From: Candidatus Bathyarchaeota archaeon
GTDB taxonomy: Archaea > Thermoproteota > Bathyarchaeia > Bathyarchaeales > Bathycorpusculaceae
Reading direction: 5' to 3'
Assembly: GCA_963832745.1 (NCBI GenBank)
Contig: CAWHVC010000005.1
Coordinates: forward strand, 32,001-96,000
Length of the DNA stretch: 64,000 nucleotides
The notes beneath the pieces were generated by a model. The model did not search any database and was not told where the DNA came from. It was given only the letters and a program-made list of their open reading frames with translations. Numbering within the stretch: position 1 is the first letter of the stretch; each line of letters opens with the position of its first letter. Of this stretch, positions 3,903 to 63,313 are shown one piece after another. A program made the position numbers and the translations under genes.

Positions 3903-4805
3903 TTACTCTAAACCAAGCCGCCGTCCAAGCCCAACCTGTAACACCATCTTGTAAGCTCGCCCCATCACTTTACGCCGAACCGTCTTCTTTGGATACAAAG
4001 CCTTAAACTGCTCTAAAGGGGCACCACGTTCGATAAACCACTTGTTGCCAACGCCTTCCGTTTCAGCTAAACGCAAATAAGGAATGCCTTGAGGATTTAA
4101 CCAGGCGATTTGGGCAGCGGCAACATCAATAGCTACAGGGTCAGTACTTGCCATCATTAACCCTATACGACGCGGCTGAATCCCCGATGCAATGTTACTG
4201 TCTATGATGACGAGGTCAAACGGCATTGCTTTGTTTAAAGCCACAATCACGTTTCCAAGATCATTATGAAGCTTATACTTTTTAGGGTAAGGGTTACAGC
4301 CGTAAAGGTTTTTGAGAGCACAAGTTATTTTGATTGGGTCAACAGTATACTTGATTTTGGGCAAGTTAATTCTTAAGTCGGCTTCTTTGAGGATTTTTGG
4401 AACCATAAACTTGTAGGGTTTGCCATTGCATGACACTTCAGCCTCATCGCTTGGTTCTTCCGACAGGTTGATTAACTTGACATTTTTTTCTAAAGCAAGC
4501 TTTTCAAAACCCAGCATGCGAAAAGCATACTTGCAACGCATAGCTGACGCGTCCGACTCCACAACCGAAATGTCAACATCCGCAGAGACTTGTTCACGCA
4601 GAAAATCTATCAATTCGCCTACGAATCGGGGGTCGGATGTTTGTCCAGTGGTGCTGTCCCAGTAGTAGCACAGGTTGGGTTTTATAACGATTTTTTTGGT
4701 TGACTTGTCAAACTTATAGTCTATAAGGTTCAGGGCTTCACCTATTGCCTGTTTTAGAGAGCTTTGATTGGTGTTTTGGATTTTAGTTAAACCAACTATA
4801 CTCAT
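3903..4805 (-). CDS. DUF362 domain protein
   Basis: IVIKPN, NLPKIK, ALKNLYG, DPVAID motifs; ATG 4805 preferred to track start 4862. Confidence 0.85.
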   Translation of the reverse strand: MSIVGLTKIQNTNQSSLKQAIGEALNLIDYKFDKSTKKIVIKPNLCYYWDSTTGQTSDPRFVGELIDFLREQVSADVDISVVESDASAMRCKYAFRMLGFEKLALEKNVKLINLSEEPSDEAEVSCNGKPYKFMVPKILKEADLRINLPKIKYTVDPIKITCALKNLYGCNPYPKKYKLHNDLGNVIVALNKAMPFDLVIIDSNIASGIQPRRIGLMMASTDPVAIDVAAAQIAWLNPQGIPYLRLAETEGVGNKWFIERGAPLEQFKALYPKKTVRRKVMGRAYKMVLQVGLGRRLGLE

Positions 4806-7478: not shown

Positions 7479-7905
7479 TGCTAACGAGACCCTTCTTGAA
7501 AACCTCATAATCCCTAATGTAATCAGATTCGTCATAGACTGCAGAGACAAGCGATAAAGCAACAGAGTTGGAAGAAAAATTTTCCAGTTCCCGCCAAACC
7601 CCCGGTGGAATATATAAACCATAATGGGGCCTGTTCAAAAAGAAAGAACGTTTTGTTAAACCATCATCCAGCATGACGTCAAAGCTACCGCTTAACGCAA
7701 TGATAATCTGTTGCAGCGCTTTATGGGCATGTCCACCGCGTGTGGCGCCGCTTGGCACATCATAAAGGTAGTAGACGCGTTTTATTTGGAAAGGGATTTG
7801 GTTGTTTTCTTCGATAAAAGATAAGTTGCCGCGAAAATCGGCAATTTTTGGAAAATAAATTAGTTTACAATCATCTAAAACCAAAAATTCACCACCAAAA
7901 AGCAA
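7465..7905 (-). CDS. fdtA: sugar 3,4-ketoisomerase (FdtA/QdtA cupin)
   Basis: DFRGNLSFIE, KRVYYLYDVP, RGGHAH, DYIRDY. Confidence 0.9.
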   Translation of the reverse strand: MLFGGEFLVLDDCKLIYFPKIADFRGNLSFIEENNQIPFQIKRVYYLYDVPSGATRGGHAHKALQQIIIALSGSFDVMLDDGLTKRSFFLNRPHYGLYIPPGVWRELENFSSNSVALSLVSAVYDESDYIRDYEVFKKGLVSNVVK

Positions 7906-7917
7906 AAATTTTCTAAA

Positions 7918-11050: not shown

Positions 11051-13183
11051 TTAAGTGGGAGTTTGCCGGATTTCGCTGCCGCCGTTTGAGTAGATAACGT
11101 TTGTTTGATTAAGTATAGTGTTTAAGGTGCCGTTCCACGCTTGGGGTTCATAGTTGATGCTTATGTAGCTTAAGTAAATGTATTCTTCAGAATGTAGCAC
11201 AGTGTCGTTTCTAAGTTCTGTTACGTACCCACGGTACACTAGGCCATATGCCGTCAATGACGTAAATAGCCCGTTGTCTGCCGTTATGTTGTTCTGGTAA
11301 GGCACATTTGAATGAAGCCACACTGCACCTTGCACGCTAAAGTCATCAATGTAACCGAAGTCGCCGTACAATCGCAATGGATTCATGCGGTAACCACTTA
11401 ACGGAATTGACCAACTGTCAGTTTTAGCGGCTTCATACACAAAATTGGTTTGGAACAAGAAATAAGGCACCAAAATAACAACAACTAGTAAAGCCACCAT
11501 TAAGGGACGTTCTTTTTTGGTTAAGAACTTTACAAACATCCAAATGCCGACAATGCAGAAAGGCGCAAGCAGCATCAAAAGAATGTGGTAAAACCGAGTC
11601 ATGTTAAGCGTGTTTGCCAAGCCGGGAACTATGGTTAACGCCGCCAATATTGCCATGGCGACCAAAGCGAAGACTGCATAGTCACGGTCGAAACTAAACT
11701 TGGTTTTGCGTGTGATTAAACCCACAATTCCGATGAGGATGAAGAGTTCGGTTAGGTAGGCAAAGCCGCGGCTTACAGTGTTAAGCAGTGAAGGAGATTC
11801 AGCTAAACCTAACCCAGTTAGAACCGCTGAGCCTCGAGATAACGGGTTAAAAAAGTCGCCTAACTGGCTATACACGTAATTAGTGAAGGTTACGAAACTG
11901 TCGAAAACGATTGAACCTGAAGTGAAAATGTACCAGCCAAACATGGCGACAAAAAAGAACACAATCATGCCAAGCTGCAGGTTAACGCTGGGGCGCCTAA
12001 AAAGCCACATGGATGCTGCCCAAGCAGTAAAAATCAGTACCAAAAAAATTTCAGAAAGCGCGTAATGCGAAAAAATGAGACCAAAGCCAAAAATCATGAA
12101 AGCAAAATATTTTGTTTGCATTTTTATTTGTTTGTTAAGCAGCACCATGAAGAGCAGGACAAAAAAGAGTTCGGCGATTAATTGTCGGCTTAACGCCATC
12201 ATTTCTGTATAAAAGGTAGATTGTGCCATAAACAGGAAAGCGGCAAGGAAAGCGTATTTTTTGCCGATGTATGGCTTCCAAAGCATGTATAAAGCGACGG
12301 GCAGAAAAGCAAAGATTATGGGGTAAATGATTTTGTAAACCCATGTTGGGTCTAAGCCTAGCATGTTTGAGTAAACTGTCGGTAGAACGGTTACGCTGAG
12401 CATTGCGTTCATTCTGCCCAATGGTTGATCGCCGACTGCAAACGGAAGCACAGGGGACCAGTAAGAGTTCATTTGGGCATTTCTGAAAACAAACAGTTCA
12501 ACCGGCGAATCGCCGCCGTATGGCACAATGTAGCCAGATATAAGAGAGAAATGAAACAGCAAAGCCAAAGCAATCATGAAGATGGCTACAGGATAAACTT
12601 TGCCAAGGCCCGGCCGGTTAAGGAATGCAAGGGCAACAAAAAGCAAGCTTACAATGGATATCATAAGCATTAGGATGCTACTGTTACCGTTTAAATTCAC
12701 AAAGTAAGCGCCGATTATGCTTAGAATTGGCAGAAAAACTAGAATTAGCGCCCAAGGCGAAAAAGAGTTCTTTTCGGCAGAGTTTTGCGGCGGAATTGTT
12801 GGTTGTTGCTGGAATTGTGCGATTGCGGCTCCAATAAGAATCAAACTGTTCAAGAATAATGAGATAGGTAAAGTTGAAAGCGGCATGTTTAATCCAAAAC
12901 TTGCTCCGAAACTGTTGATTATTAAGCCCGCAATCATCAAAAATGCAAGACTGAAACCTAAAGCAAAAAGAGCGGACTCAACAACGTTTAGCCTATCAAG
13001 TTTTAACAGTTTAAGAGCAACAAAACCGGGAATGAAAGTTAAGTAAGCAATTCCAACGATTATGCGGATGAGCGGCAAATCAGCGAATAAGGCAAAATAC
13101 ATTACGAACTGCAGCACAAACACGACTGCAAAAAAATGCTGCGAAAACTTGCGTTGATAAAGCTCCAAAACGTCGGTCTCCAA
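11051..13183 (-). CDS. DUF2206 family polytopic membrane protein
   Basis: 710 aa, many TM; TFIPG, RQLIAE, FSHYA, TRFYH motifs of this archaeal glycan-locus family. Confidence 0.8.
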   Translation of the reverse strand: METDVLELYQRKFSQHFFAVVFVLQFVMYFALFADLPLIRIIVGIAYLTFIPGFVALKLLKLDRLNVVESALFALGFSLAFLMIAGLIINSFGASFGLNMPLSTLPISLFLNSLILIGAAIAQFQQQPTIPPQNSAEKNSFSPWALILVFLPILSIIGAYFVNLNGNSSILMLMISIVSLLFVALAFLNRPGLGKVYPVAIFMIALALLFHFSLISGYIVPYGGDSPVELFVFRNAQMNSYWSPVLPFAVGDQPLGRMNAMLSVTVLPTVYSNMLGLDPTWVYKIIYPIIFAFLPVALYMLWKPYIGKKYAFLAAFLFMAQSTFYTEMMALSRQLIAELFFVLLFMVLLNKQIKMQTKYFAFMIFGFGLIFSHYALSEIFLVLIFTAWAASMWLFRRPSVNLQLGMIVFFFVAMFGWYIFTSGSIVFDSFVTFTNYVYSQLGDFFNPLSRGSAVLTGLGLAESPSLLNTVSRGFAYLTELFILIGIVGLITRKTKFSFDRDYAVFALVAMAILAALTIVPGLANTLNMTRFYHILLMLLAPFCIVGIWMFVKFLTKKERPLMVALLVVVILVPYFLFQTNFVYEAAKTDSWSIPLSGYRMNPLRLYGDFGYIDDFSVQGAVWLHSNVPYQNNITADNGLFTSLTAYGLVYRGYVTELRNDTVLHSEEYIYLSYISINYEPQAWNGTLNTILNQTNVIYSNGGSEIRQTPT

Positions 13184-43134: not shown

Positions 43135-43557
43135 CTACAGGCCAAAAATTTGATTGACCAGCTCCTGACCACCCGGCTGCAGCCTTAACAATTCGATTAT
43201 CGCTTCAACATGCGACTTCTGACGAGTATGCGAAGGAGTATGGTCATCACCCGCCTTAAGGACATACAAAAAGTCTTCTTTAGGCAAACCCCACACCACA
43301 CCCACACGGTCACTGGACAAAACCTGCAAAAAACAATGATTAAGACTCTGCTTGGGCGTAGTAAATAGCCTGAAAGGTTTGTGCTGAGCCAAAGTGTAAG
43401 CAATTATGCCAGCGCTGTTTGAAGATGCCAACTTCTTAACTCTCAGCCAGAGGGTTTGGCAGGGTTGACTGCTGCATTTACGGCAGAATTGGCGGTCTTC
43501 TGGGTCAGCGTTTTTGTTCCATTGTTTGCAGAATCCGCGGTTTACTAAATAGGGCAA
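43135..43557 (-). CDS. hypothetical Cys-containing protein
   Basis: 140 aa ORF, CRKCSSQPC. Confidence 0.55.
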   Translation of the reverse strand: MPYLVNRGFCKQWNKNADPEDRQFCRKCSSQPCQTLWLRVKKLASSNSAGIIAYTLAQHKPFRLFTTPKQSLNHCFLQVLSSDRVGVVWGLPKEDFLYVLKAGDDHTPSHTRQKSHVEAIIELLRLQPGGQELVNQIFGL

Positions 43558-47945: not shown

Positions 47946-47970
47946 GTGCAGAGAGTGGGATTTAAAGCCC
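47946..47970 (-). repeat. degenerate copy of tRNA-Leu 3' end (old att site)
   Basis: gtgcagagagtgggatttaaagccc vs tRNA-derived gtgcagggggtgggatttgaaccc. Confidence 0.5.
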
Positions 47971-48790
47971 CAACAAGTGGAGTCGCCCACAACTCCATTT
48001 TTCTCATTATTTTTTAATGTCAATAATTTGCATATTTAACGTGTATAATATCGAGAGTTTGCCACACTTAAAGAAAGTAGTTCTAAACACCAATACTTGA
48101 GGATTAGCTGTGTCTTGTTTGGAGATTACGGTCAGGTTGGCAAGTCATGACAGTAAATTCAGAGAAAAGAACTATTTAACAGAGTTAGTTATTTTTTTGG
48201 TGCCTCTCCATTTGAAACGGGGAAAAATGTTTCAATTCTTTTGGTATTTTGATTTTTCTTTTTAACCTCTTTGGTTCTATAATCAAAGTTTGTTTTGATT
48301 TTTAAGTCGTTTACTTTTGCTTTTTTCGATGTCATTTCTTTTCTACCTCTAAAGATTTTTTGTTTCGAAGAATTGATTTCTTATCGAGCATGGATCTCTA
48401 TTGCTGCCTCATCTGAGGCGATAGTGTATAAGCAATTACGGTTTTGCATATTTTCCCAGGGGCGGTTTACCTTTTGGGAAAATCTACATCTTCGCGGCGT
48501 TAGGCATTTTTGCCCAAATTAACGCTTCACCCAACCTTCTTTTCTTCTCTTAGACGAGCTTTGCCAGAATCACATGTTTCATTAAATACATGTGATCAAA
48601 GAATCCCATAAACCAATAGAGCCAGAGCCATTCTTTTAAATCATTCTATACAAGAAAAATTTCACGTATATACGTGTCCATCTAATTTTATTCTTGTACA
48701 CAATGGCATAGGCGAACATAGTTGGCACCAAGCCTTAAATAAAATTGAGTGAAACTCACCCGAAAAAAAACTCCTATAGTTTTGTATTGT

Positions 48791-48815
48791 TGGTGCAGGG
48801 GGGGGATTTGAACCC
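48791..48815 (-). repeat. att site: direct repeat of tRNA-Leu 3' end
   Basis: tggtgcag(g-run)atttgaaccc matches 53211-53235, including the CCA end. Confidence 0.85.
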
Positions 48816-48895
48816 TGTCGCCCGTGGAGAAATCACCCGCCCTCTTTCCTTTTTTCTTTACTATTGCAAATTAGGGCTTCTATTATGCCTAAAAA

Positions 48896-49681
48896 TTGTA
48901 TCCATCTAATCGTCGAATTCTATCTCCAACTCTTAACTCCTGCGAGCAAGGAAAATACAAAGAGGCTTGGAGCGAAAATCTTGAACGAATTATTGCCCAA
49001 TCCCAAAACGAACTAAAAAATCACAGTGTTACTCCAGAAAATGCAGTTTTAACCCAAAAAGGCATTCAAGCGTCTTTGCCGTCTTCACTTGATAATAACG
49101 GACAATTCTCACCTACATCAAAAACAGCTAATTGCTGGAGCAAGAAGCAAAAAAGAGCCTACCACTGTGCAATATCAGGACTAAAAAGATGCAAAGCATT
49201 AGGCTACAAAGCATTCTTCCTAACACTCACCAGCTCACCAAAAACAAATCATCCAGACTTAAGAAAAGACTGGGACATACTTGTAAAGCGCATACGAAAG
49301 CTCTTTCCTAAATTCCAATACGTAAAAGTTGAAACATTCGAAGGCTATGGCGTCATTCATGCACTTTATCATCATGCTTTTGAAGACTGGAACTACAAAG
49401 ATATTCACCATTGGATAAGCAAAGCATGGTCAGATATTCATCAAGCACCTATAGTTTGGAATAGTGTTGTAGGTGAAGGTTGGTCAATCAAAAAAGTAGC
49501 TGGTTACCTCTGCCAATATATGAGTAGCCAACGAGGCTTTTTTAGACGTAGCACATCTTTAAACTGGATATTCGCTGGTTACAGGAAAAAATGGGTTTCT
49601 TTGATCAAGAAGTATGAATTTAGAAAAGCACTTCGTGCATGGAATTTTCTTTTGACGGTCCCTGCAATCTATACCACATAA
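48896..49681 (+). CDS. HUH-superfamily rolling-circle replication initiator (Rep)
   Basis: Motif I FLTLTS, motif II variant GVIHAL, motif III variant YLCQYM; start uncertain. Confidence 0.72.
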   Translation: MYPSNRRILSPTLNSCEQGKYKEAWSENLERIIAQSQNELKNHSVTPENAVLTQKGIQASLPSSLDNNGQFSPTSKTANCWSKKQKRAYHCAISGLKRCKALGYKAFFLTLTSSPKTNHPDLRKDWDILVKRIRKLFPKFQYVKVETFEGYGVIHALYHHAFEDWNYKDIHHWISKAWSDIHQAPIVWNSVVGEGWSIKKVAGYLCQYMSSQRGFFRRSTSLNWIFAGYRKKWVSLIKKYEFRKALRAWNFLLTVPAIYTT

Positions 49682-49809
49682 GAAACGTTTCTTAAAAAAT
49701 ATTTAGATGTACTTGGACCTAATAGGGCGATTTGATGATGGGTTGCATAACGATTATTGGCAAGATTTTATTAATAAAAAAATCCTAACTTGCTCTATTA
49801 GAATAGGTA

Positions 49810-51705
49810 ATGAAGTGCATTAAAATGAGCAATAACGATGAATTTAAATCAATCTACAAAGATCTTGAAGACAAAAATTACCCAGTTAGGCATCTAAAGA
49901 ATGTCGCCGATGTTTTTCAAAAAATCCGAGACCAAATGCATAAGGAAGGAAAAACAGATGAAGAAGCAAAGGCTCAGTGGGAAGTAGATGTCTTCAACTT
50001 AATGATCGATGCAAATATTGTTAAGCCTATGTTCGTTATGACAAATGAGAAAGGCGAAGAGATAATCTACCCGAATACGAGTGCATTTACCGAAAAAACA
50101 TATGAATATTTCATTGAAAGATTGGATTTGACTAATAATCCTCAACTTAGATCACGCTATGCTCACATACTTTGGCTAAGCCCAAAAAAACATGGAAAAT
50201 TTGCGCAAATAGCGATAGACGATTATTTGGAACTTGTTAAAATATATGAAAAAAAGGACATCGATGACCCATCTGGACTTTTTGGTTTAGATATTATCAA
50301 TTCAATCGAAAATGCTTTTGCATTGGCAACAAATATCGGTGACTTAACTCGGGTTAATACCCTAAAGAATGAGATTAAGCGATTAATCGTTAATTTCAAT
50401 CCAGTTAGCAAGTCTTTATTTGTTTTGAGGGCTCAATTGATTGATCTGATGTTTAAATATGGGAAGTTTTTTGTAAGCGAAGATTTTCAAGGACTAAATA
50501 ATTTATGCTTGAATTATGCCCAACAACTTCAGGATTGTCATCAATCGATTACCATTTTAGAGATAGGTGCTAAAATCGATCAAAAGCTTGGTAGCTCGAT
50601 TGCTAATTGGAAGCAACTAATCGCTGAATGCTTTGAAAAAATGATGATTGCTAATATTGAAAAAAATAAGCTCGCTGCACTTCATTTCTGCGAGTTAGCA
50701 CTAAAATATTATAGAGAAATCAAAAATACGTTAAAGATAAATGAATTAGAGAAAGTTTATGATCAATTAAAAAATGAAGCTGAATTTAAAGAAATTAGTG
50801 TTCCAATAGACCTTACGGACTACATTAAGCAATGTGAAGAGACTGCCAAGAAACTCTCTGGATTTTCAAGCGAAGACATAATCAAGTATCTCATTAGTGA
50901 ACCAACCTTATTACCGAAATACAAAGATGTTGAGAAATCAGCAATCGAAATAAGCAAAGGGCATTTTGCAAGTGTTATACCGCATACCGTATCAGACGAA
51001 AGAGGACATGTTGAACAGCATTTTAGTACTGATGACGAATTACGGGAATTCCAAACGCTCCAACATTATGATAGGACTCTACAAGTCCAGAGCATGCAGC
51101 TAGTAAATAGACTAATAATCGAAGCTGTAAAAGCAAAAAAACTTGGCTTTCAGTCAGCTATTACATTTTTTAGTAAATATTCATGGTTTGGGAAAACTCT
51201 CAAAAGGAAGAGTCAAAATAAAGATATCCAATATAATTGGCTTAACCTCCTAGCCCCTGCTATTCAAGAATACTTTGCTCAATTAGAATACTTTCTAGCA
51301 TCTGGAAAGCCTCCTCATTTCGTGCTTGCACTTGATTCTTTGGTTCTAAAAATTGAGGGGCTTATTCGAGATTTGTGCACATTATCTGGAGTAATAACTT
51401 TCGAACAGAAAATGGACAATAAGAACAGAATAATCTATCGCGAGAAAGACATAACGAAATTGTTACACGACGAAAAATTTGGAGCTTTGATTGGAGAGGA
51501 CGACCTGTTTTTATTAAAATTTGTCTTAACAGAGAAAGCAGGCTATAACCTTAGGCATAGAACAGCCCACTCACTATTGTTGTTCGAAGAATATACAATG
51601 TTTTACATGAATTTGTTATTCATGATATTGTTAAAACTAAGCAAATACGATCTTAAGAGTACTGAACAACCGATCAAAGATGTAAAGGAGACAGCGCCTG
51701 TCTAA
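49810..51705 (+). CDS. DUF4209-type protein with C-terminal HEPN-like R-x4-H motif
   Basis: 631 aa, AT-rich; LKIEGLIR and GYNLRHRTAHSLL. Confidence 0.75.
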   Translation: MKCIKMSNNDEFKSIYKDLEDKNYPVRHLKNVADVFQKIRDQMHKEGKTDEEAKAQWEVDVFNLMIDANIVKPMFVMTNEKGEEIIYPNTSAFTEKTYEYFIERLDLTNNPQLRSRYAHILWLSPKKHGKFAQIAIDDYLELVKIYEKKDIDDPSGLFGLDIINSIENAFALATNIGDLTRVNTLKNEIKRLIVNFNPVSKSLFVLRAQLIDLMFKYGKFFVSEDFQGLNNLCLNYAQQLQDCHQSITILEIGAKIDQKLGSSIANWKQLIAECFEKMMIANIEKNKLAALHFCELALKYYREIKNTLKINELEKVYDQLKNEAEFKEISVPIDLTDYIKQCEETAKKLSGFSSEDIIKYLISEPTLLPKYKDVEKSAIEISKGHFASVIPHTVSDERGHVEQHFSTDDELREFQTLQHYDRTLQVQSMQLVNRLIIEAVKAKKLGFQSAITFFSKYSWFGKTLKRKSQNKDIQYNWLNLLAPAIQEYFAQLEYFLASGKPPHFVLALDSLVLKIEGLIRDLCTLSGVITFEQKMDNKNRIIYREKDITKLLHDEKFGALIGEDDLFLLKFVLTEKAGYNLRHRTAHSLLLFEEYTMFYMNLLFMILLKLSKYDLKSTEQPIKDVKETAPV

Positions 51706-52039
51706 AACTGTGGGCTATCAAAACAAGTAGATCAGACGTATGCGCTCAGGGAGGAGTGCGGGGGGTACCCTTTAGGGTAGGGTCATCCGCTACGACAACC
51801 GAGGCGCTTAACCGTCGTCGCCCTGGAACGTCCGAGACGGCGATAGCCGTCCAACTTCTACTGAAGATGCTTTCAAACCTTTGTAAACCATGGACTTTGT
51901 TAATTTTTTTTCAGAAAAATCCAATCCAACATGCAGATAGCGATTTTTTATCAACCTAATATTATATCCAAAGTTAAGGAGTTGAAGTTTAACGGTTTTC
52001 CTAAAAAATACTAATGGAGGTGAAACGGCAAGTAGAGAA

Positions 52040-53150
52040 TGACTTGATTGTAGTAGTAAGAGAAATGTAAAGATGGCTTAAGAGAAACAAGCTTTGGTTC
52101 GTTTACGTTTTCTTTGTCGTGATTGTGGTTTTAGGTTTAGTGATTCTAAAGGCTTAAATCTAGACAGCCCCTCTATGGCGTTAGCCAATTATGCGCTGAA
52201 ATTGAGGCGAAAAAATTGGACACAGCAACAGAAACAAAACTGTTGCGGGTGAATCTAAAACTCAAAGCTGACGGAAAAATCCTTGAAAATGCTTGGTGGC
52301 TAAAGAAGAACGGTAGAAGCGAATCAACCATAGAAAGCAGAGTAAAACTGTTAAAGACGTGTTAAACGAGGCGCAAATCTCAATGACCCCGAAACCATCA
52401 AAGATGTAATAGCAATGCAAACGTGGAGGCAGGAAGAAAAAACAATGCTTCAGATGCCTACTCAGCATATCTAAAAATGGTGGGTGGCAAATGGGAAGCA
52501 CCACAATACAAAAAAATCCGTAAACTACCATTCATCCCCAAAGAAAACGAAATGACCACTCATAGCTGGAAGTAGCCCACGCATGGCAGTATTCCTACAG
52601 CTACTAAAAGAGACAGGCGCAAGATGTGGAGAAATCTGGCACTCAAATGGTAAGATATAGACTTCGAAAGCAAAGTAGTCAACATTACACCTGAAAAAAA
52701 CAGCAACCCAAGAGTGCTACATCTAAGCAACAAATTCTTGAAATGCTTACAAATCTACCAAAACGGTACGGTCAAAGAGTTTTCTCGCTACCAAAAATGC
52801 GAATAGATAACTTTGCAGTAAACTTCCAAAGACAACGAAAAAGAACTATCAACATAAATTGAAAAATCCACGGCTAATAAAAATTCACTTCCACACACTA
52901 CGCTATTGGAAAGGCACTATTCTATACCATCAGTATCGTTCAGAACATGTCTAGTCATGCAAAAGTTAGGTCACAAGAACATAGCAAACACACTCTTGTA
53001 TATCCAACTCGAAGAAGCACTGTTTCAAGGAGACTGCTAATACACTTCAAAAGTAGCTAAAACTGAAAAGGAAATATGCGCTTTAATCGAAGCAGGCTTT
53101 GAGTACGTCACCGATTTTCAGGGGAGCTAAAATCTTCAAAGAGGAAGTAA
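52040..53150 (+). CDS. tyrosine recombinase/integrase with N-terminal Zn-ribbon (heavily frameshifted)
   Basis: ETGARCGE, HFHTLR, LGHKNIANTLLY across frames; KDGLR...FLCRDCGFRF at the N-terminus; ggaggtga RBS at 52016; start approximate. Confidence 0.85.
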
Positions 53151-53210
53151 CAAGAGGAAAACCAAAAAAACAGAAACATCGCGAAGTACCCCCATACTAA
53201 TTGCTTATAT

Positions 53211-53296
53211 TGGTGCAGGGGGTGGGATTTAACCCACGAACCTCTAGAGGATAGGCTCTGAAGCCTACGCCTTTGACCATGCTCGGCGACCCCTGC
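53211..53296 (-). tRNA. tRNA-Leu (CAA or CAG; anticodon loop one base short as sequenced)
   Basis: GCAGGGG/CCCCTGC acceptor, A73, CCA, D-loop TGGTCAAA, variable arm CCTCTAGAGG, T-arm GTGGG/CCCAC. Confidence 0.88.
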
Positions 53297-55975: not shown

Positions 55976-57433
55976 ATGTCTTCCCAAAAGAATTTGGCGA
56001 CAGAGGAATTTTTTTTAATCAAAACTGGTGCTTTAGACCAAATCAAAGACATCATTTTAGCAGTTGATAACCAAAACAACATTATCTACATAAAACAAGG
56101 CAGCAGCGAAATACTACAACATAGACAAAAAAAAAGCAACCAATCTTGAATTAACCAAATTATACCAAATGCAATGGTTTAATCAGAATGATGAACATGA
56201 AGCAAACATATCTCTTAAAGAAAATGGCTACTGGGAAGGCACAAACATTCAGCTATCGCCCGATGGCTCAAAGAAAGCTGTCGAATCCATCGTTAATGTA
56301 ATCAAAGATGAATCAGGCAAAAAAGTTGGTTTGCTCACAATAACTCGAGACATAACAAAAAGAGTCAATGTTGATGAATGGTTATTTGAAAGCAACCAGC
56401 GTCTAAATTACGCTCTGAAGCTGCACGTATCATGGTTTACGAAATTGACAATTTTACCCATAGAGTTATTATCGTTAGGGGCTTAGAGGAGCTTCTCGGA
56501 TACGCAATCGGTGAAGTACCCTCGACAATTGACTGGTGGATTTCTCAAATTCACCCCGATGACATCTCAAAAGCTCAAGAGCAATTTTACCCTACAAAAT
56601 CAATTGACGGCTTAGTCAACCAGTATCGTGTCAAACATAAAGACGACGGCTACATTGTTGTTGAAGGTATCGCCAAAGTTCTAAAGGATAAGTCTGGAAA
56701 AACTACAAAACACATCGGCAGTATGCAAAACATAACCGAAAGCAAAAAACTAGAGAAAATGCTTCAAGAAAAGAACGCTTAGCCACCATCGGGGTTACAG
56801 CAGGCATGGTTGGGCATGATATACGCAATCCACTGCAAGCTATGATTAGTGACGTTTATTTGCTCAAGGATGAGTTAGCTTCAATGCCTAAATGCCCTAC
56901 AAAAGAGGGCGTTAATGAAAGCATCATTAGCTTAGAGAAAAACATTGGTTACATCAACAAGATTGTTGCTGACCTCCAAGATTATGCTAAACCAGTAAAT
57001 CCTCAATGTTCTGAGATGAACATTTACGAATTAGCCAAAGATGTTTTAGAATCAGTTAATTTACCTGACAACTTGACCCTTTCCGTTAACATTGGCAAGT
57101 CTCTTACAATTATTAGCGACCCCATGCTTTTAAGACGTATTCTAACAAATTTGATTACAAATGGTATTCAAGCCATGCCTAAAGGAGGCCAACTTACAAT
57201 TGTAGCTTATGACGAAGAAAAACACTTTTAATTAAAGTTGTGGATACGGTATTGGAATCCCTGAAGATGTTAAGCCAAAACTGTTCACGCCGATGATGAC
57301 CACGAAATCCAAAGGGCAAGGCTTGGGGCTAGTTGTTGTCAAAAAGTTTGTAGAAGCATTAGAGGGCTCGATTAATTTTGAGAGCAAAGAAGGGCATGGA
57401 ACAAAATTTACTATACTGCTTCCCAAGAAATAA
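55976..57433 (+). CDS. PAS-PAS sensor histidine kinase (frameshifted)
   Basis: PAC motifs RDIT and IHPDD; H-box GHDIRNPL, N-box NLITNGIQA, DTGIGI, KGQGLGL across frames. Confidence 0.85.
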
Positions 57434-57810
57434 CAAGAAAAACCAATATGTGCAAGTTGTTTGTAAATAGCTTGGGGGCTGATATGCAGTCCCTTAGTCA
57501 TGGGTAGGTTGTTGGGCGACAATAAACTTGGCTGCTCGGTTGAAAGAAAACTAGACAGGGCATTAATGCAAGTGAAAAACCTAAATTATCCTTTAAAAGT
57601 GTTATAAGCGGTTCTTATCCGTGTGCTAACATAGATAGGATTTAGCAAAAAGTCTGGGGTGCCTCCATTTCTTGTTAACAGATAAAACGCTTAAGCCCAA
57701 ATGCACAGATGTATCCTCAATTCAAGAAATCAAGGAATTAGGATAAAAAATGATGTTGTCACAGCCTGAAGTCACAAGTCCTATGTTTTCAATAGCATAA
57801 TTAATTACTT

Positions 57811-57833
57811 AATGTAGCAATTGTTGCTACATT
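57811..57833. promoter_or_regulatory. 10-bp perfect inverted repeat
   Basis: aatgtagcaa-ttg-ttgctacatt. Confidence 0.45.
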
Positions 57834-57891
57834 TTTGCAGCCACAAAATACTATATTTCGTAAATGGTTTTATGCTTGAAAAGTGATATGT

Positions 57892-58020
57892 ATGATTGAC
57901 CTTCAGTTAAATGTCCAAAATGTAAGAAAGAATAGAGAACCCTTATCAGCTACGGCAACACCGAATGCAGTACCATAAAACTCTGGGAATGGAATATATG
58001 AATCTATCAATGGCAAAATA
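57892..58020 (+). CDS. tiny C2H2 zinc-finger protein (frameshifted, not in track)
   Basis: CPKC-x12-HRMQYH when one indel is repaired; start uncertain. Confidence 0.5.
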
Positions 58021-59290
58021 AATTGTCTTATTTTTTGCTAAATCAGTTTTCTTTATGGTGCTTTAGGGTTTGAAGATTTGGATCGTGCTGTTTTCTTTAT
58101 TTTCAGTAAATGATAATTTTTTGTCTATAACAAAATCTATTAACTGAGAATTATTACTCAAATTTTAATTTTAACTGATATTTCCCCTTGGAGGTTTCTT
58201 CAATACTAATCATAGAAGGAGGTATACTGCTCTGTTTTACCAGCGCCTTTAGGAGATTAATTGCTTCGTCACGGTTCATAGGAGTTTGAACTCCTCTGAA
58301 TTATTTCTCACCGATTTGATATTTATAATATCTAAAAATTAATTGCAAAAATTTTACCCTACATTGGCACATCCTCATTTACTGTCACAATTAATTGATT
58401 GACCACTAAGCTGACTTTAACTGGTTGATGTGATTTTTCAGATTGCTTTTGTAGCCATTACTTTTTTTCATTACACTTCTAAACTCAATTATTAATTAGG
58501 TTGATCTAAGAAACCGCTTCTTTACATGAGCTCTGTTGATTTTAGCTAACGAGTAAGTGCGACCTTGATAAAAAAAAATTGGCAACTATTCAACCAAACA
58601 TCATTATTTTTAAATAAAAAAGTTATGTCATAAATAATACCTAAAATTAAACTGTTAAATCACAAAGAAAGATCAACGAAAAGAAAGCTAAAGTTTAGAG
58701 AGGCATTTCTAGTGAGCGGTATATGTTTTTGTGTAATTTTAGTCTGTGTTTTCTTAGATGGTTAGGGGTTTTCAAGTAATTTTTTGCGGAATAGACATTT
58801 ATAAAAGGTTGCTTTTTTCAAAAAAAATCCCTTAAACAAAAGAAGGCTTGCTTGGATATAATTGCTTCATTATGAGACAACATTTTCTTTTATTTTGTTT
58901 TTTCTAACATGTACCAGTGGATCGGAATATGCTCTTAAGATAAGTGGTTTATCTGCTAACAAGAAATGGTTGCTAGCCCCTCTCACTCTTTTTGGCAACC
59001 TAACTATGCTAGCACAAAGGTAAATCACTTATAACATTTTTTTAAAAAAACAATTTTAACAGTATTAGGTATGCAACAAAAACATGGCTTTAACTATCTT
59101 CCAGAGTATGCAACAGACATTATTAAAAGGGCTTGACTACTTTGGCTAAAGTTGTACAACCCTTTTATTTCTCAGGTCTGCTAATTGTAGAATTGTTGTC
59201 TTGTTCTTCTATGGTGTCTCGAGAGCTAACTCTCTTTGTTGTCTTTTCTCCGTGGTGTTGCAGTCAAGAAAAGCAGGTGCTAATAGTTGG

Positions 59291-59590
59291 GTGAAGCTGT
59301 TTAAACCTGTCAAGAAACCATCATCAAACCGTTCGGCAAAGGAGCGCAGAAATATGTTATTTCGCGTTTTAGACGGCGTATTAAGCCTGTCTCACCAAAA
59401 AATTCATACAGGCGGTAAAAGCGACCGCGCTAAGCAGGGTTGGGCACGGGTTTTGGTTTCAGCAGTCTCAGCCTATGGCCCTTTGCTTAAAGATGAGGAA
59501 CTTCGAGCTTAGGGTAATAGACATTAGAGGAGAAACTAAAAAACAACGTTCTGATTCCAAAACCAGAGGACAAAACGAAATGAACACCCT
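59291..59590 (+). CDS. hypothetical helical protein, possibly mobile-element derived (frameshifted; end approximate)
   Basis: AKQGWARVLVSAVSAYGPLLKDEEL followed by a coiled-coil-like tail in a shifted frame. Confidence 0.45.
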
Positions 59591-59784
59591 AAGCAGAAAA
59601 CTGTATGCATTAGAAAAAAATGTGCTGCCAGAACTTCCAGAAAAAGGTAAAACAAGAATAACATGGGACAACGGAGACACAACGTTAGATGAAGCAGAAA
59701 ACTAATTACACAGACGTGCAACACAAATCTTGCAATACCACGCCAATGAATTGCAGGCATCGTAGACTGACAGAAATGCATTTC

Positions 59785-60517: not shown

Positions 60518-61450
60518 TGCTTATTCTCCCTCACTAGTTTCAGGTAGGCATCTTCCAACGAACTGCTGGTCACAGTAACAGTCTCGATACGCCCACCCGC
60601 TGAGACGATTGTATCCACAACATCAGGATTCTCCTCTTGAGGGATCCATAACATCGAAAGTCAACTTGTTATCCTCTGAGACCAAGTTCTTCACTTTTAG
60701 TTTTCTGAGGGAATCCAAAATCAATTTGCTTGAATGTATGAGTTGAATCACTGTTTTTCTTCCATGGATGGAGCGTTCCAGTTGTTCGGGAGTACCCACA
60801 GCCATCAGCTTGGTATTCAAGATGCCAATCTTGTCGCAGATTCTTTGCGCCTCATCGAGATTGTGAGTGTTGAGAAAAATTGTTTTCTTCTTCTCCTTCA
60901 ATTCAAGGATAAACTCCCTGACTGACTTTGAAGCTTCTGGATCAAGGTTCGCAGTCGGTTCATCCATGAAAACTATCTTTGGATCGTGAACCAAAGCTCG
61001 TGCTATGGCGAGTTTTTGTTTCATTCCCTTAGAGAACGTTCCCACTGAGAACATCTCTTCTTCGCCCAGAGACCAAAGCAATTTGAGGAAGTATTCATTG
61101 CTTTCTCTTCGTTCGGAGTCAGTCCGTCTGTAAAGTGTTCCATAGTAGTCAAGGTTCTCGTAGGCAGTAAAGCGGTACTCATACAGCCTGACATTATCGG
61201 GAACGAGTCCGATAATCTTCCTAATCTTCAAAGCATTTTCTTCGCTACCAACTTCGTATCCTCCGATCTTAGCGGTACCGCTTGTCTTTGCTATAGGAAG
61301 CAGAGAAATTCCTACCTGTTGTCGTTTTTCCTGCACCGTTGGGTCCTAAGGAGATCGAAAGACTTCACCCTCGTCAACGCTAAGGGTTAGATTATCAACA
61401 GCTGTTATACTACCGAACTTCCTTGTGAGATTCACAGTTTCAATCATCAT
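60514..61450 (-). CDS. ABC transporter ATP-binding protein (frameshifted)
   Basis: LGPNGAGKTT, FSKGMKQK, DEPT, THNL, SLEDAYL. Confidence 0.88.
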
Positions 61451-61906: not shown

Positions 61907-63313
61907 TTGTCTGGTTTATCTCACACTCAAAAATCTAAGCAACAAAAAAGTCGCTTCATCTACGTTGCAGGCGTAATTTCAGCTTTAGGTGGACTACTGT
62001 TTGGTTATGATACTGGCGTAATTTCCGGCGCTATACTGTTTGTGAAACAAGAATTCGCTTTATCCCCAACAGTTGAGGAGTTAGTTGTGAGTGCAGTTTT
62101 ATTGGGTGCTTTAATGGGGGCCGGCATAGGTGGACCATTAGGCGATAAAGCGGGCAGACGAAAAACACTGATTATCGCAGCGACCATTTTTGCTCTTGGC
62201 GCAATAGGAACATCGCTTTCCCCAAACGTTGCCTTCTTGGTAGCTGGACGAATAATTGTTGGACTTGCAATAGGTGTCGCTTCTTTTACAGCTCCACTTT
62301 ACTTATCTGAAATTTCACCGGCTAAAATTCGAGGTCGTTTGGTAGCGTTTAACCAACTTGCGTTAACAATTGGCATAGTTATTTCATATTTGGTCGATTA
62401 TGCGTTTTCTGCTTCAGCTGATTGGCGAATAATGTTTGGTTTAGCGGCTGTTCCTGCAGCCATTTTAGGCGTTGGTATGTTTTTGATGCCTGATAGCCCA
62501 CGGTGGCTCATAATGGACAGCAAGAGCAGCGAAGCCAAAAAAGTTTTGTTAAGAATTGATCCCGCAAAAAATCCAGACAAAGATATATCAGACATTGAAC
62601 GGAGTTTGAAGCTTCAAAAAACCGGTTGGCATGAACTTTTTGGTCCAATGGTTAAACCGGCGTTAATAATAGGTATCGGATTAGCTATATTCCAGCAAAT
62701 CACCGGAATTAACACAGTAATTTACGATGCTCCAACGATCTTTCAGTTCGCGGGAATTGCTTCAGCTTCTAACGCCATTCTTGTCACAGCTATTGTTGGT
62801 GTAGTTAACGTTGTCCTGACAGGCGTGGCTGTGGCGCTTCTTGACAAAGTAGGAAGGCGCCCCCTTCTACTCATTGGTCTCACTGGAATGGTGGTAAGTT
62901 TAGCAGTTTTAGGCGTAGCTTTCTTTATACCCCCCTCTCAGGGACGGTAGGCATAGTTGCGACAATAGCGTTAATGGCTTATGTTGGGTCCTTTGCCATA
63001 GGATTAGGACCCATCTTTTGGCTTCTAATATCAGAAATTTTTCCGCTCAAAATAAGAGGTAAAGCGATGAGTATAGCCACAGAAGCCAATTGGGGGTTTA
63101 ACCTTGTGATCGCTTTGACGTTTCTAAGTCTCATTGGCATTATCGGACGTTCAGGGACTTTTTGGTTCTATGGAGCAGTAGGAATTATCGCATGGATTTT
63201 CTCCTATATGCTAGTCCCAGAAACACGTGGACGCACACTAGAAAAGTATCGAGGAACATTGGAGAAAAGGTAAACATCCAAAGGAGATGAAACCAGACGC
63301 AGAAACAAAGTAA
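61907..63313 (+). CDS. sugar porter family MFS transporter (frameshifted near 62945 and 63245)
   Basis: GGLLFGYDTGVISGA, GRR, PDSPRWL, QQITGIN, PETRG. Confidence 0.92.

Follow-up and report, generated by a model that had tools for sequence, protein, structure and literature searches.

Within the 64,000-nucleotide stretch of Bathyarchaeia DNA analysed here (hereafter the window; G000:C5:32001-96000, from a genome of 3.02 Mb in 5 contigs with 41-42% GC, assigned to Bathyarchaeia also by the names that its close homologues and related contigs bear), an insertion of 4.4 kb lies at a tRNA-Leu(CAG) gene (window positions 48790-53296), and it raises the question of whether this is a mobile element that can still leave its site or only the trace of one. 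A preliminary description of the locus had taken it for a very small integrative plasmid or satellite with a replication initiator (Rep), a cargo gene and an integrase. Our analysis makes it very likely that 48790-53296 is a decayed, immobilised copy from a family of small (3.3 to ~6 kb) tRNA-integrating elements of Bathyarchaeia. The insert contains an intact Rep gene, an intact cargo gene and a broken tyrosine integrase gene, and sits beside a damaged tRNA. Because the integrase is multiply broken, the tRNA is damaged and the bounding repeat is imperfect, the window copy should be incapable of excising by its own means, and as an account of its present-day state the integrative plasmid or satellite does not hold.

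The three-gene content proposed earlier stands for Rep and cargo but not for the integrase, which is not an open reading frame (ORF) but a set of pieces spread across all three frames (52025-53150, + strand). The longest stop-to-stop frame between 51706 and 53210 is 97 codons at most. The pieces, in frames 1, 2, 1, 2, 1, 0, 2, 1 and 1, align in order to C2:87742-88716 within a paralog on another contig of the same genome (G000:C2:87424-88743), which is a single frame of 439 aa, matches Pfam PF00589 (Phage_integrase; E 3.1e-15), has an N-terminal zinc ribbon and shares 74-81% identity with the best-preserved pieces. The frame changes seven times or more and in-frame stops occur as well; a one-frame alignment to the 439-aa paralog contains 9 stops. 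At the position of the integrase start ATG in an intact sister element, L018, the window codon reads ACG. The fragments still carry ..ETGARCGEIW.., ..HFHTLRYWKGT.. and ..NTLLYIQ.., and the gene has no uninterrupted frame with the catalytic residues. Judged by these disruptions, the gene at 52025-53150 is a tyrosine-integrase pseudogene.

The intact paralog itself adjoins a tRNA-Leu(TAG) in an insertion of ~23.6 kb outside the window (G000:C2:65262-88888; L015, L016). This insertion is bounded by an exact 19-nt copy of the tRNA end (C2:65262-65280), its genes encode AbiEii, SIR2_2, EVE and AAA_11/AAA_12 helicase domains, and it has the appearance of a defence island carried by an integrative element. 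A third integrase paralog (G000:C5:11245-12132), upstream of the window and 38-60% identical to the pseudogene pieces, adjoins tRNA-His at C5:12402-12475.

The target tRNA is similarly damaged. At 53211-53296 (- strand) ARAGORN reports only 'tRNA-???' with a two-letter anticodon, and comparison with the intact orthologue in the congener G008 (tRNA-Leu(CAG), L011 6831-6917) shows that a single base is missing from each of two conserved loops, the anticodon loop and the T loop (which loses the C), and that the last base differs; the rest is identical. No Rfam tRNA match at E<=1 is found in 14 kb around the locus, and in a 301-nt Rfam search the best match is tRNA-Sec at 16.6 bits; the gene scores below the Rfam tRNA threshold. 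The window tRNA is not among the 46 RF00005 matches of the genome, where the two genuine tRNA-Leu genes, (GAG) and (TAG), are 88 nt long with normal loops and score 50.1 and 48.9 bits, and BLAST finds no second Leu(CAG) copy in the genome. From ARAGORN, Rfam and the orthologue comparison, we take the tRNA-Leu(CAG) at 53211-53296 for a pseudogene, barring an assembly error at both sites.

The insert is bounded by a direct repeat of the tRNA 3' end; this repeat, the limits of homology to sister elements and an unoccupied site in a congener together define its borders. A 25-bp duplicate of this end 4.4 kb from the tRNA had been described previously, and the repeat is indeed present, but it is imperfect. 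The left attachment (att) core (48790-48815) copies the last ~26 nt of tRNA-Leu(CAG) minus one base, and the right core (53210-53235) is the 3' end of the tRNA pseudogene. Over 26 nt the two copies are 85% identical when ungapped; in a gapped alignment 25 of 27 columns agree, the left copy lacking a T and the right copy lacking a G, and the exact 13-mer TTGGTGCAGGGGG opens both. The corresponding repeat is exact in two relatives, over 25 nt in L018 and 23 nt in L084. Homology to the sister elements begins at the left core or within about 55 nt inside it, namely at 48785 (L012, G008:C23), 48825 (L020), 48831 (L018) and 48843 (L013, G010), and the core sequence follows the target tRNA, being of Leu type in the window and G008:C23 and of Phe type in L018 and L020. 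An unoccupied site is available at G008:C17, which has the orthologous tRNA and flanks (the right flank is 83% identical to the window) and lacks Rep, cargo and integrase. The left repeat might have persisted in such a relative if it were unconnected with the insertion; only one att core is found there, with no second copy within 13 kb.

Next to each core is a conserved arm. The left arm, which is also the region upstream of Rep (48816-48895, + strand), contains GTGGAGAAATCACCCGCC..TTTTTTCTTTACTATT..ATTAGGGCTTCTATTATGCCTAAAAA; the ~80 nt from the left core to the Rep start is conserved in all five aligned elements (window, L018, L012, L020 and L013), and the arm recurs in G243 at 85% identity. 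It may serve as a promoter or as an arm site for the integrase. Between the end of the integrase gene and the tRNA lies a second conserved arm (53165-53210; ..AGAAACATCGC..CCCC..), which is common to the integrase-tRNA junctions at C2 and in G005.

The Rep gene (48896-49681, + strand) is an intact ORF of 261 aa encoding a putative rolling-circle initiator of the HUH superfamily. It matches Pfam PF23343 (REP_ORF2-G2P; E 3.6e-6, 27.6 bits) and phrog_3419 ('rolling circle DNA replication initiation'; E 1.2e-7), and several close homologues as well as L031:5082-6053 exceed the PF23343 cut-off. There are 636 relatives at E<=1e-3 among cluster representatives, and an alignment of 61 of these was used to read motif conservation. 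In motif I (hydrophobic-uTuT; FFLTLTSS in the window) L111 is invariant and T112 is conserved in at least 90% of the sequences; in motif II, the His-hydrophobic-His pattern of metal binding, the window reads GVIHALY and has only the second His, the invariant H155, and some relatives carry HxH at these columns (IHLHILY, VHAHLIY); and in motif III (YLCQY) Y204 and Y208 are conserved in at least 90%. The window Rep keeps all of the invariant and nearly invariant residues of the family. The single His in motif II and the YxxQY were thus correctly noted before, but to call them atypical was mistaken, since they are the norm among the 61 relatives.

Structural comparison points in the same direction. 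The AlphaFold2 model of Rep (mean pLDDT 82.6) has a predicted HUH-type fold, the lack of which would have told against the earlier assignment. The best solved structure is the SIRV1 ORF119 Rep (2x3g), with Z 10.5, a root mean square deviation of 2.8, 111 of 116 residues aligned and 12% identity (Foldseek E 2.4e-3); the next row has Z 8.6, and the AAV5, MVM NS1, Helitron and FBNYV Reps have Z 6.5-7.4. BFVD yields 202 matches at E<=1e-3, of which both named ones are microvirus replication initiators. Among named proteins, the one nearest in sequence is the pRQ7/pRKU1 Rep (30.6% identity, 82% coverage, E 8e-15). No NCBIfam family matches the Rep, tblastn finds no match in the phage collection, and a sequence profile search of solved structures returns two chance-level rows (E about 0.5). 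Together the motifs, the fold match and the likeness to the pRQ7 Rep support the assignment as an HUH initiator. The ratio of nonsynonymous to synonymous substitution rates (dN/dS) is 0.10-0.24 in the four sibling pairs with estimable dS, a comparison that leaves the window's own branch uncovered, as dS between the window Rep and all three siblings is saturated or not computable. By these ratios, the Rep of intact siblings is under purifying selection.

Downstream lies the cargo gene (49810-51705, + strand), intact and encoding 631 aa with DUF7380 (E 1.7e-13) and DUF4209 (HEPN; E 1.1e-6) domains. It matches PDC-S39 of PADLOC (E 6.5e-36), which is a candidate system only, and no NCBIfam family. 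N580, R582 and H587, which belong to the Rx4H motif, are invariant in 25 aligned homologues, and DUF4209 is among the HEPN families predicted to be active RNases by Anantharaman et al. (PMC3710099, in the portion available). The view that the payload is one putative defence gene finds support in the PDC-S39 and DUF4209 matches. On a 24,791-bp contig from a near-identical population the called cargo covers only residues 59-438, at 98% identity and with the DUF4209 part missing, and the called Rep starts at residue 61; the contig is judged from its called proteins, so gene-calling artefacts are possible. With both calls shortened, selection on either gene does not look strong. No other ORF of at least 90 aa is listed inside the element. 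Scans of the two intact ORFs with Pfam, PHROG, NCBIfam and PADLOC reveal no virion or transfer families, Pfam and PHROG specifically show no capsid, spike or packaging genes, and there is no transfer gene (FtsK-like Tra, or relaxase with oriT) among the element ORFs, which agrees with the earlier report of no capsid or conjugation genes.

Between cargo and integrase there is a conserved GC-rich non-coding element (51738-51860, + strand) of ~120 nt, which is 91-95% identical in L018 (9760-9849), L021 (2470-2678) and L013 (8976-9023), while the surrounding intergenic DNA is not conserved. Further copies lie near L031 7049, L032 7076, L033 7037, L034 7027, L035 6256 and L037 591, and the L021 copy has an insertion of ~110 nt just after TTAAC. 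A 17-nt core, GCGCTTAACCGTCGTCG (51804-51820), does not vary across genera, one of its loci encoding a PF23343 Rep together with an integrase, and is single-copy in the window's own genome; a candidate hairpin, CGAGGCG-CTTAAC-CGTCGTCG, spans 51797-51822. The core is absent from pRQ7 and from a 1.2-kb circle described below, and among the fetched Rep loci, which include Rep-integrase loci with larger Reps, it occurs only in L069 (the same locus as L018), so that it marks one subfamily only. The possibility that the element is a structured RNA was considered and rejected: its fold is no better than that of shuffled sequences (z -0.13), RNAalifold with 9 sequences gives no more than 10 pairs, of which 2 show compensatory change, and Rfam offers no match at E<=1. 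Given the weak folding and the lack of an Rfam match, the RNA reading was dropped in favour of a putative DNA site, and the element is a candidate origin or regulatory site. Separately, the first half of the element is found ~50 nt from a tRNA-Phe(GAA) at L038/L023 (G193:C3 near 49247), where neither Rep nor integrase was detected; this locus appears to be what a deletion has left of an L018-type element.

The context for interpreting the window copy comes from its relatives. L018 is intact and lies in a contig of 389,893 bp, with the copies of its exact 25-nt repeat at 7891-7915 and 11206-11230, 3,315 bp apart, and a tRNA-Phe(GAA) at 11210-11286. It encodes a Rep of 270 aa (78% identical to that of the window), a 281-aa ORF with a signal peptide and a C-terminal membrane anchor (recognised by eye), and a 375-aa integrase. 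On L021, a metagenome contig of 4,180 bp, Rep is accompanied by two small zinc-ribbon ORFs, the GC-rich element and an integrase of 420 aa. In the congener G243 (L084) a 6.1-kb unit with a 23-nt exact repeat and an integrase is located at an intact tRNA-Leu(CAG); its arm and integrase region share 85% and 74% nucleotide identity with the window, but its Rep differs (384 aa, 26% identical over 129 residues). The combination of a kindred arm and integrase with a different Rep indicates that modules are exchanged between elements, and the intact 3.3-kb sister and the 6.1-kb relative point to a modular family. Other sisters are broken: G010 has Rep in two pieces, integrase fragments and no large cargo, and G008:C23 has a shortened Rep and a 303-aa Ig-like membrane protein.

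The 6.1-kb unit of G243 is itself part of a tandem array (4750-12938 in L084, G243:C3:621900-636700) at the intact tRNA-Leu(CAG), the order being an outer attL-like site (4756-4800), a 546-aa ORF and then the unit. At the integrase start position L084 reads AAG where L018 has ATG.

The Rep family profile matches in 38 of the 332 genomes of the taxonomic family, representing 13 of its 70 genera, and single-protein scans for related loci returned 2 genome loci and 2 metagenome loci. A full-length integrase is encoded downstream of Rep on the same strand in 5 of the 20 fetched Rep loci (L069, which is L018, L079, L083, L084 and L085) and integrase fragments are present in 2 (L075 and L080); at the remaining 13, many of which are short contigs, no integrase was found. 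One Rep locus differs in form. L048 (G121:C217) is a 1,354-bp contig with an exact 141-nt terminal overlap, which gives a 1,213-bp circle encoding nothing but a Rep of the family, with a full HLH and a YxxKY, and a small zinc-finger protein of C2H2 type. Its size approaches that of the smallest plasmids known, and it too speaks for the family Rep as an initiator.

From these comparisons the following scenario can be drawn. A working member, with the layout seen in relatives, runs from an att core identical to the tRNA 3' end through the arm, the HUH Rep, a variable cargo slot and, in one subfamily, the GC-rich non-coding element to the tyrosine integrase, whose gene ends about 45 nt from the tRNA. 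To judge by the protein families, the integrase would recombine attP with the tRNA 3' end such that the tRNA is rebuilt, and the excised circle, in which attP would join the end of the integrase gene to the start of Rep, would be nicked by a Rep tyrosine and copied by rolling-circle synthesis, as in the related pRQ7. In the window copy the cargo slot is occupied by the HEPN (DUF4209) candidate defence gene; its integrase has meanwhile decayed, and one base is gone from each of two conserved tRNA loops and from each att core.

Several observations weigh against this interpretation. The arm at 53165-53210 is also present at the 'empty' G008 site, which a simple model with an att core alone fails to explain. 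The interval between the tRNA and a shared flank gene (the homologue of the 140-aa ORF at 43198-43557) is 820 bp in G008 and 9.6 kb in the window, and a 4.4-kb element alone leaves ~5 kb of mostly ORF-poor DNA on its left unaccounted for. The PF23343 score of the Rep is 0.2 bits below the curated cut-off of 27.8, and neither the window element nor any close sister was seen as a circle, L021 and L020 being without terminal overlap. In addition, the frameshifts and the two tRNA deletions rest on one assembly, and the broken appearance of several genes right of the tRNA could be a sign that the sequence is poorly assembled here. For the extra DNA on the left a partial explanation is at hand. An older, degenerate attL-like site (47946-48002), made up of a tRNA-Leu 3'-end core and the element arm, matches the tRNA end at 79% ungapped and also matches, at 79%, the outer attL of the G243 tandem array at tRNA-Leu(CAG) (L084 4750-4812); it is probably a remnant of an earlier tandem integration and would account for part of this DNA.

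If the assembly were at fault, the pseudogene features would be errors and the element an intact, active integrative plasmid. The reliance on one assembly and the split appearance of other genes right of the tRNA speak for this, but the disruptions are concentrated in the integrase, with Rep, cargo and the long ORFs at 1-45 kb open; the 2.7 kb of undisrupted Rep and cargo right beside the integrase weighs against poor assembly, the T-loop deletion removes a single C outside any homopolymer, and the integrase start codon and a Cys codon are altered by substitutions rather than indels. We regard an intact element as highly improbable. A different route to present-day mobility would be through the C2 integrase acting in trans, with the element replicating by its own Rep as a satellite of the 23.6-kb element. 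The C2 paralog is intact and close in sequence to the best-preserved pieces, the tRNA-Leu(TAG) beside it shares 19 of 19 nt of 3' end with the window tRNA, and the Rep is intact with its invariant and near-invariant residues kept; however, both att cores have suffered a 1-nt deletion, at different positions, the window tRNA has not been maintained, and the arms beside the cores differ between the window and C2 elements, so that we consider mobility in trans quite unlikely.

The uneven distribution of the damage invites another explanation, in which the insertion is fixed and Rep, the HEPN gene or both are kept by the host as a domesticated defence island. The integrase has at least seven frame changes and several stops in ~1.1 kb, yet Rep and cargo, 2.7 kb together, are undisrupted; the cargo also keeps its HEPN Rx4H motif and matches PDC-S39. 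PDC-S39 is, on the other side, only a candidate system, named once in each of the papers listed for it, and the 24,791-bp contig has a shortened cargo (59-438) and Rep (from 61), with the reservation about gene calls given above; domestication appears unlikely, if somewhat less so than mobility in trans. That Rep and cargo are still open could reflect selection on both, decay too recent to have reached them, or an integrase remnant that predates the other parts. A decayed and immobilised copy of a small tRNA-integrating element remains the preferred interpretation.

Among the neighbouring sequences, window 48150-48460, with an attL-like site on either side, shares 73-75% identity with DNA of four congeners (G012, G002, G001 and G015); the match in G012 (L010, the one locus examined) sits between two genes, and neither an ORF nor an Rfam match was found for the stretch. 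A 1.5-kb segment right of the tRNA (57595-59141), which has no long ORF, is repeated at G000:C1:6737-8260 with 92.6% identity. On C1 an attL-like site (C1:6406-6461) follows this repeat 276 nt later, with a left arm of the window type and a different tRNA-like core, and after ~2.6 kb of other DNA there is a homologue (C1:3208-3774) of window 59191-59759. C1:6406-6461 was considered as a second Rep element and rejected; it has the same arm but a different core, and tblastn detects no Rep, cargo or integrase. The fragmented genes right of the tRNA are at 56169-57231, 60623-61336 and 61907-63273. PAS and HisKA pieces there belong to different ORFs, the match of an ABC ATPase begins only at profile position 37, and that of a sugar transporter, which has a 99-aa ORF behind it, ends at position 342 of 452. 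This region is either pseudogene-rich or of lower assembly quality.

The window copy is a fossil and of limited interest in itself, its value being as an entry point to the family. Intact sisters, L018 among them, provide a minimal replicon and integration module that can be put to the test, the invariant non-coding core is a concrete origin candidate, and the variable slot shows how a HEPN candidate defence gene travels between genomes. A bolder reading, which we consider unlikely, is that the Rep-integrase units form an undescribed lineage of minimal integrative rolling-circle replicons (3.3 kb when intact), related to the smallest known plasmids (pRQ7), with a hot-swappable slot between Rep and a conserved 120-nt origin-like element, filled by a secreted, membrane-anchored protein in three sisters and by the HEPN defence candidate in the window. 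Were this so, the surface proteins would suggest that spread is vesicle- or virus-like, and intact members would be natural vector backbones for Bathyarchaeia, for which we know of no plasmid or genetic system. No published description of the Rep family in Bathyarchaeia was found in the literature searched, the coverage of which was incomplete and left out supplements, and a survey of Bathyarchaeia viruses contains neither 'rolling' nor 'HUH' in its text.

Parts of this organization are familiar from other systems. The closest named relative of the window Rep belongs to pRQ7/pRKU1, 846-bp miniplasmids of Thermotoga, and studies cited in the accessible part of PMC3398313 suggest rolling-circle replication for these Rep-only replicons. 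The 1,213-bp L048 circle has a similarly minimal layout. pRQ7 is, however, bacterial and free, and is without an integrase, an att site, cargo or the core GCGCTTAACCGTCGTCG, in all of which the window element differs. SIRV1 ORF119 and the microvirus initiators match the Rep by fold and in BFVD, respectively, and the two-tyrosine YxxxY of the window Rep is a further likeness; but they serve virus genomes, whereas the window element has no capsid gene. The pSAM2-type elements of actinomycetes (AICEs) pair a tyrosine integrase with rolling-circle replication once excised, but are bacterial, 10-17 kb in size and equipped with conjugation genes, and the window element has no transfer gene. Insertion of such elements is directed to specific tRNA genes (PMC2440964, as far as its available text goes).

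Among archaeal examples, the temperate pleolipovirus SNJ2 carries its integrase and its rolling-circle initiator at opposite ends, the two being joined only in the excised circle (from the section of PMC13107129 available to us), and the integrase end and Rep start of the window element would likewise adjoin across attP. The SNJ2 Rep (Rep-Arvir family) has, according to the same section, a Rep_trans-like fold rather than an HUH fold, and SNJ2 is a virus with structural genes. The window Rep has a conserved upstream region of its own, and any dependence on circularisation would be only a guess by analogy. The cryptic integrated elements of Thaumarchaeota are, like the window element, small, archaeal and without virion or conjugation genes; NitAQ6f-E2 has a rolling-circle initiator, and the smallest, NitUzo-E2 (2.6 kb), has four genes including an integrase (PMC6563490, available part). 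The NitAQ6f-E2 Rep is reported there as homologous to those of SNJ1 and of euryarchaeal plasmids. Their host class differs, and the available part of PMC6563490 does not mention elements of this kind in Bathyarchaeia. The kind of element is thus already known, from small cryptic integrated elements of archaea and from bacterial tRNA-integrating elements such as pSAM2, and what appears to be new is the family itself, in which a pRQ7-like Rep and a zinc-ribbon tyrosine integrase are combined in Bathyarchaeia with a conserved arm, a conserved non-coding core and a variable slot.

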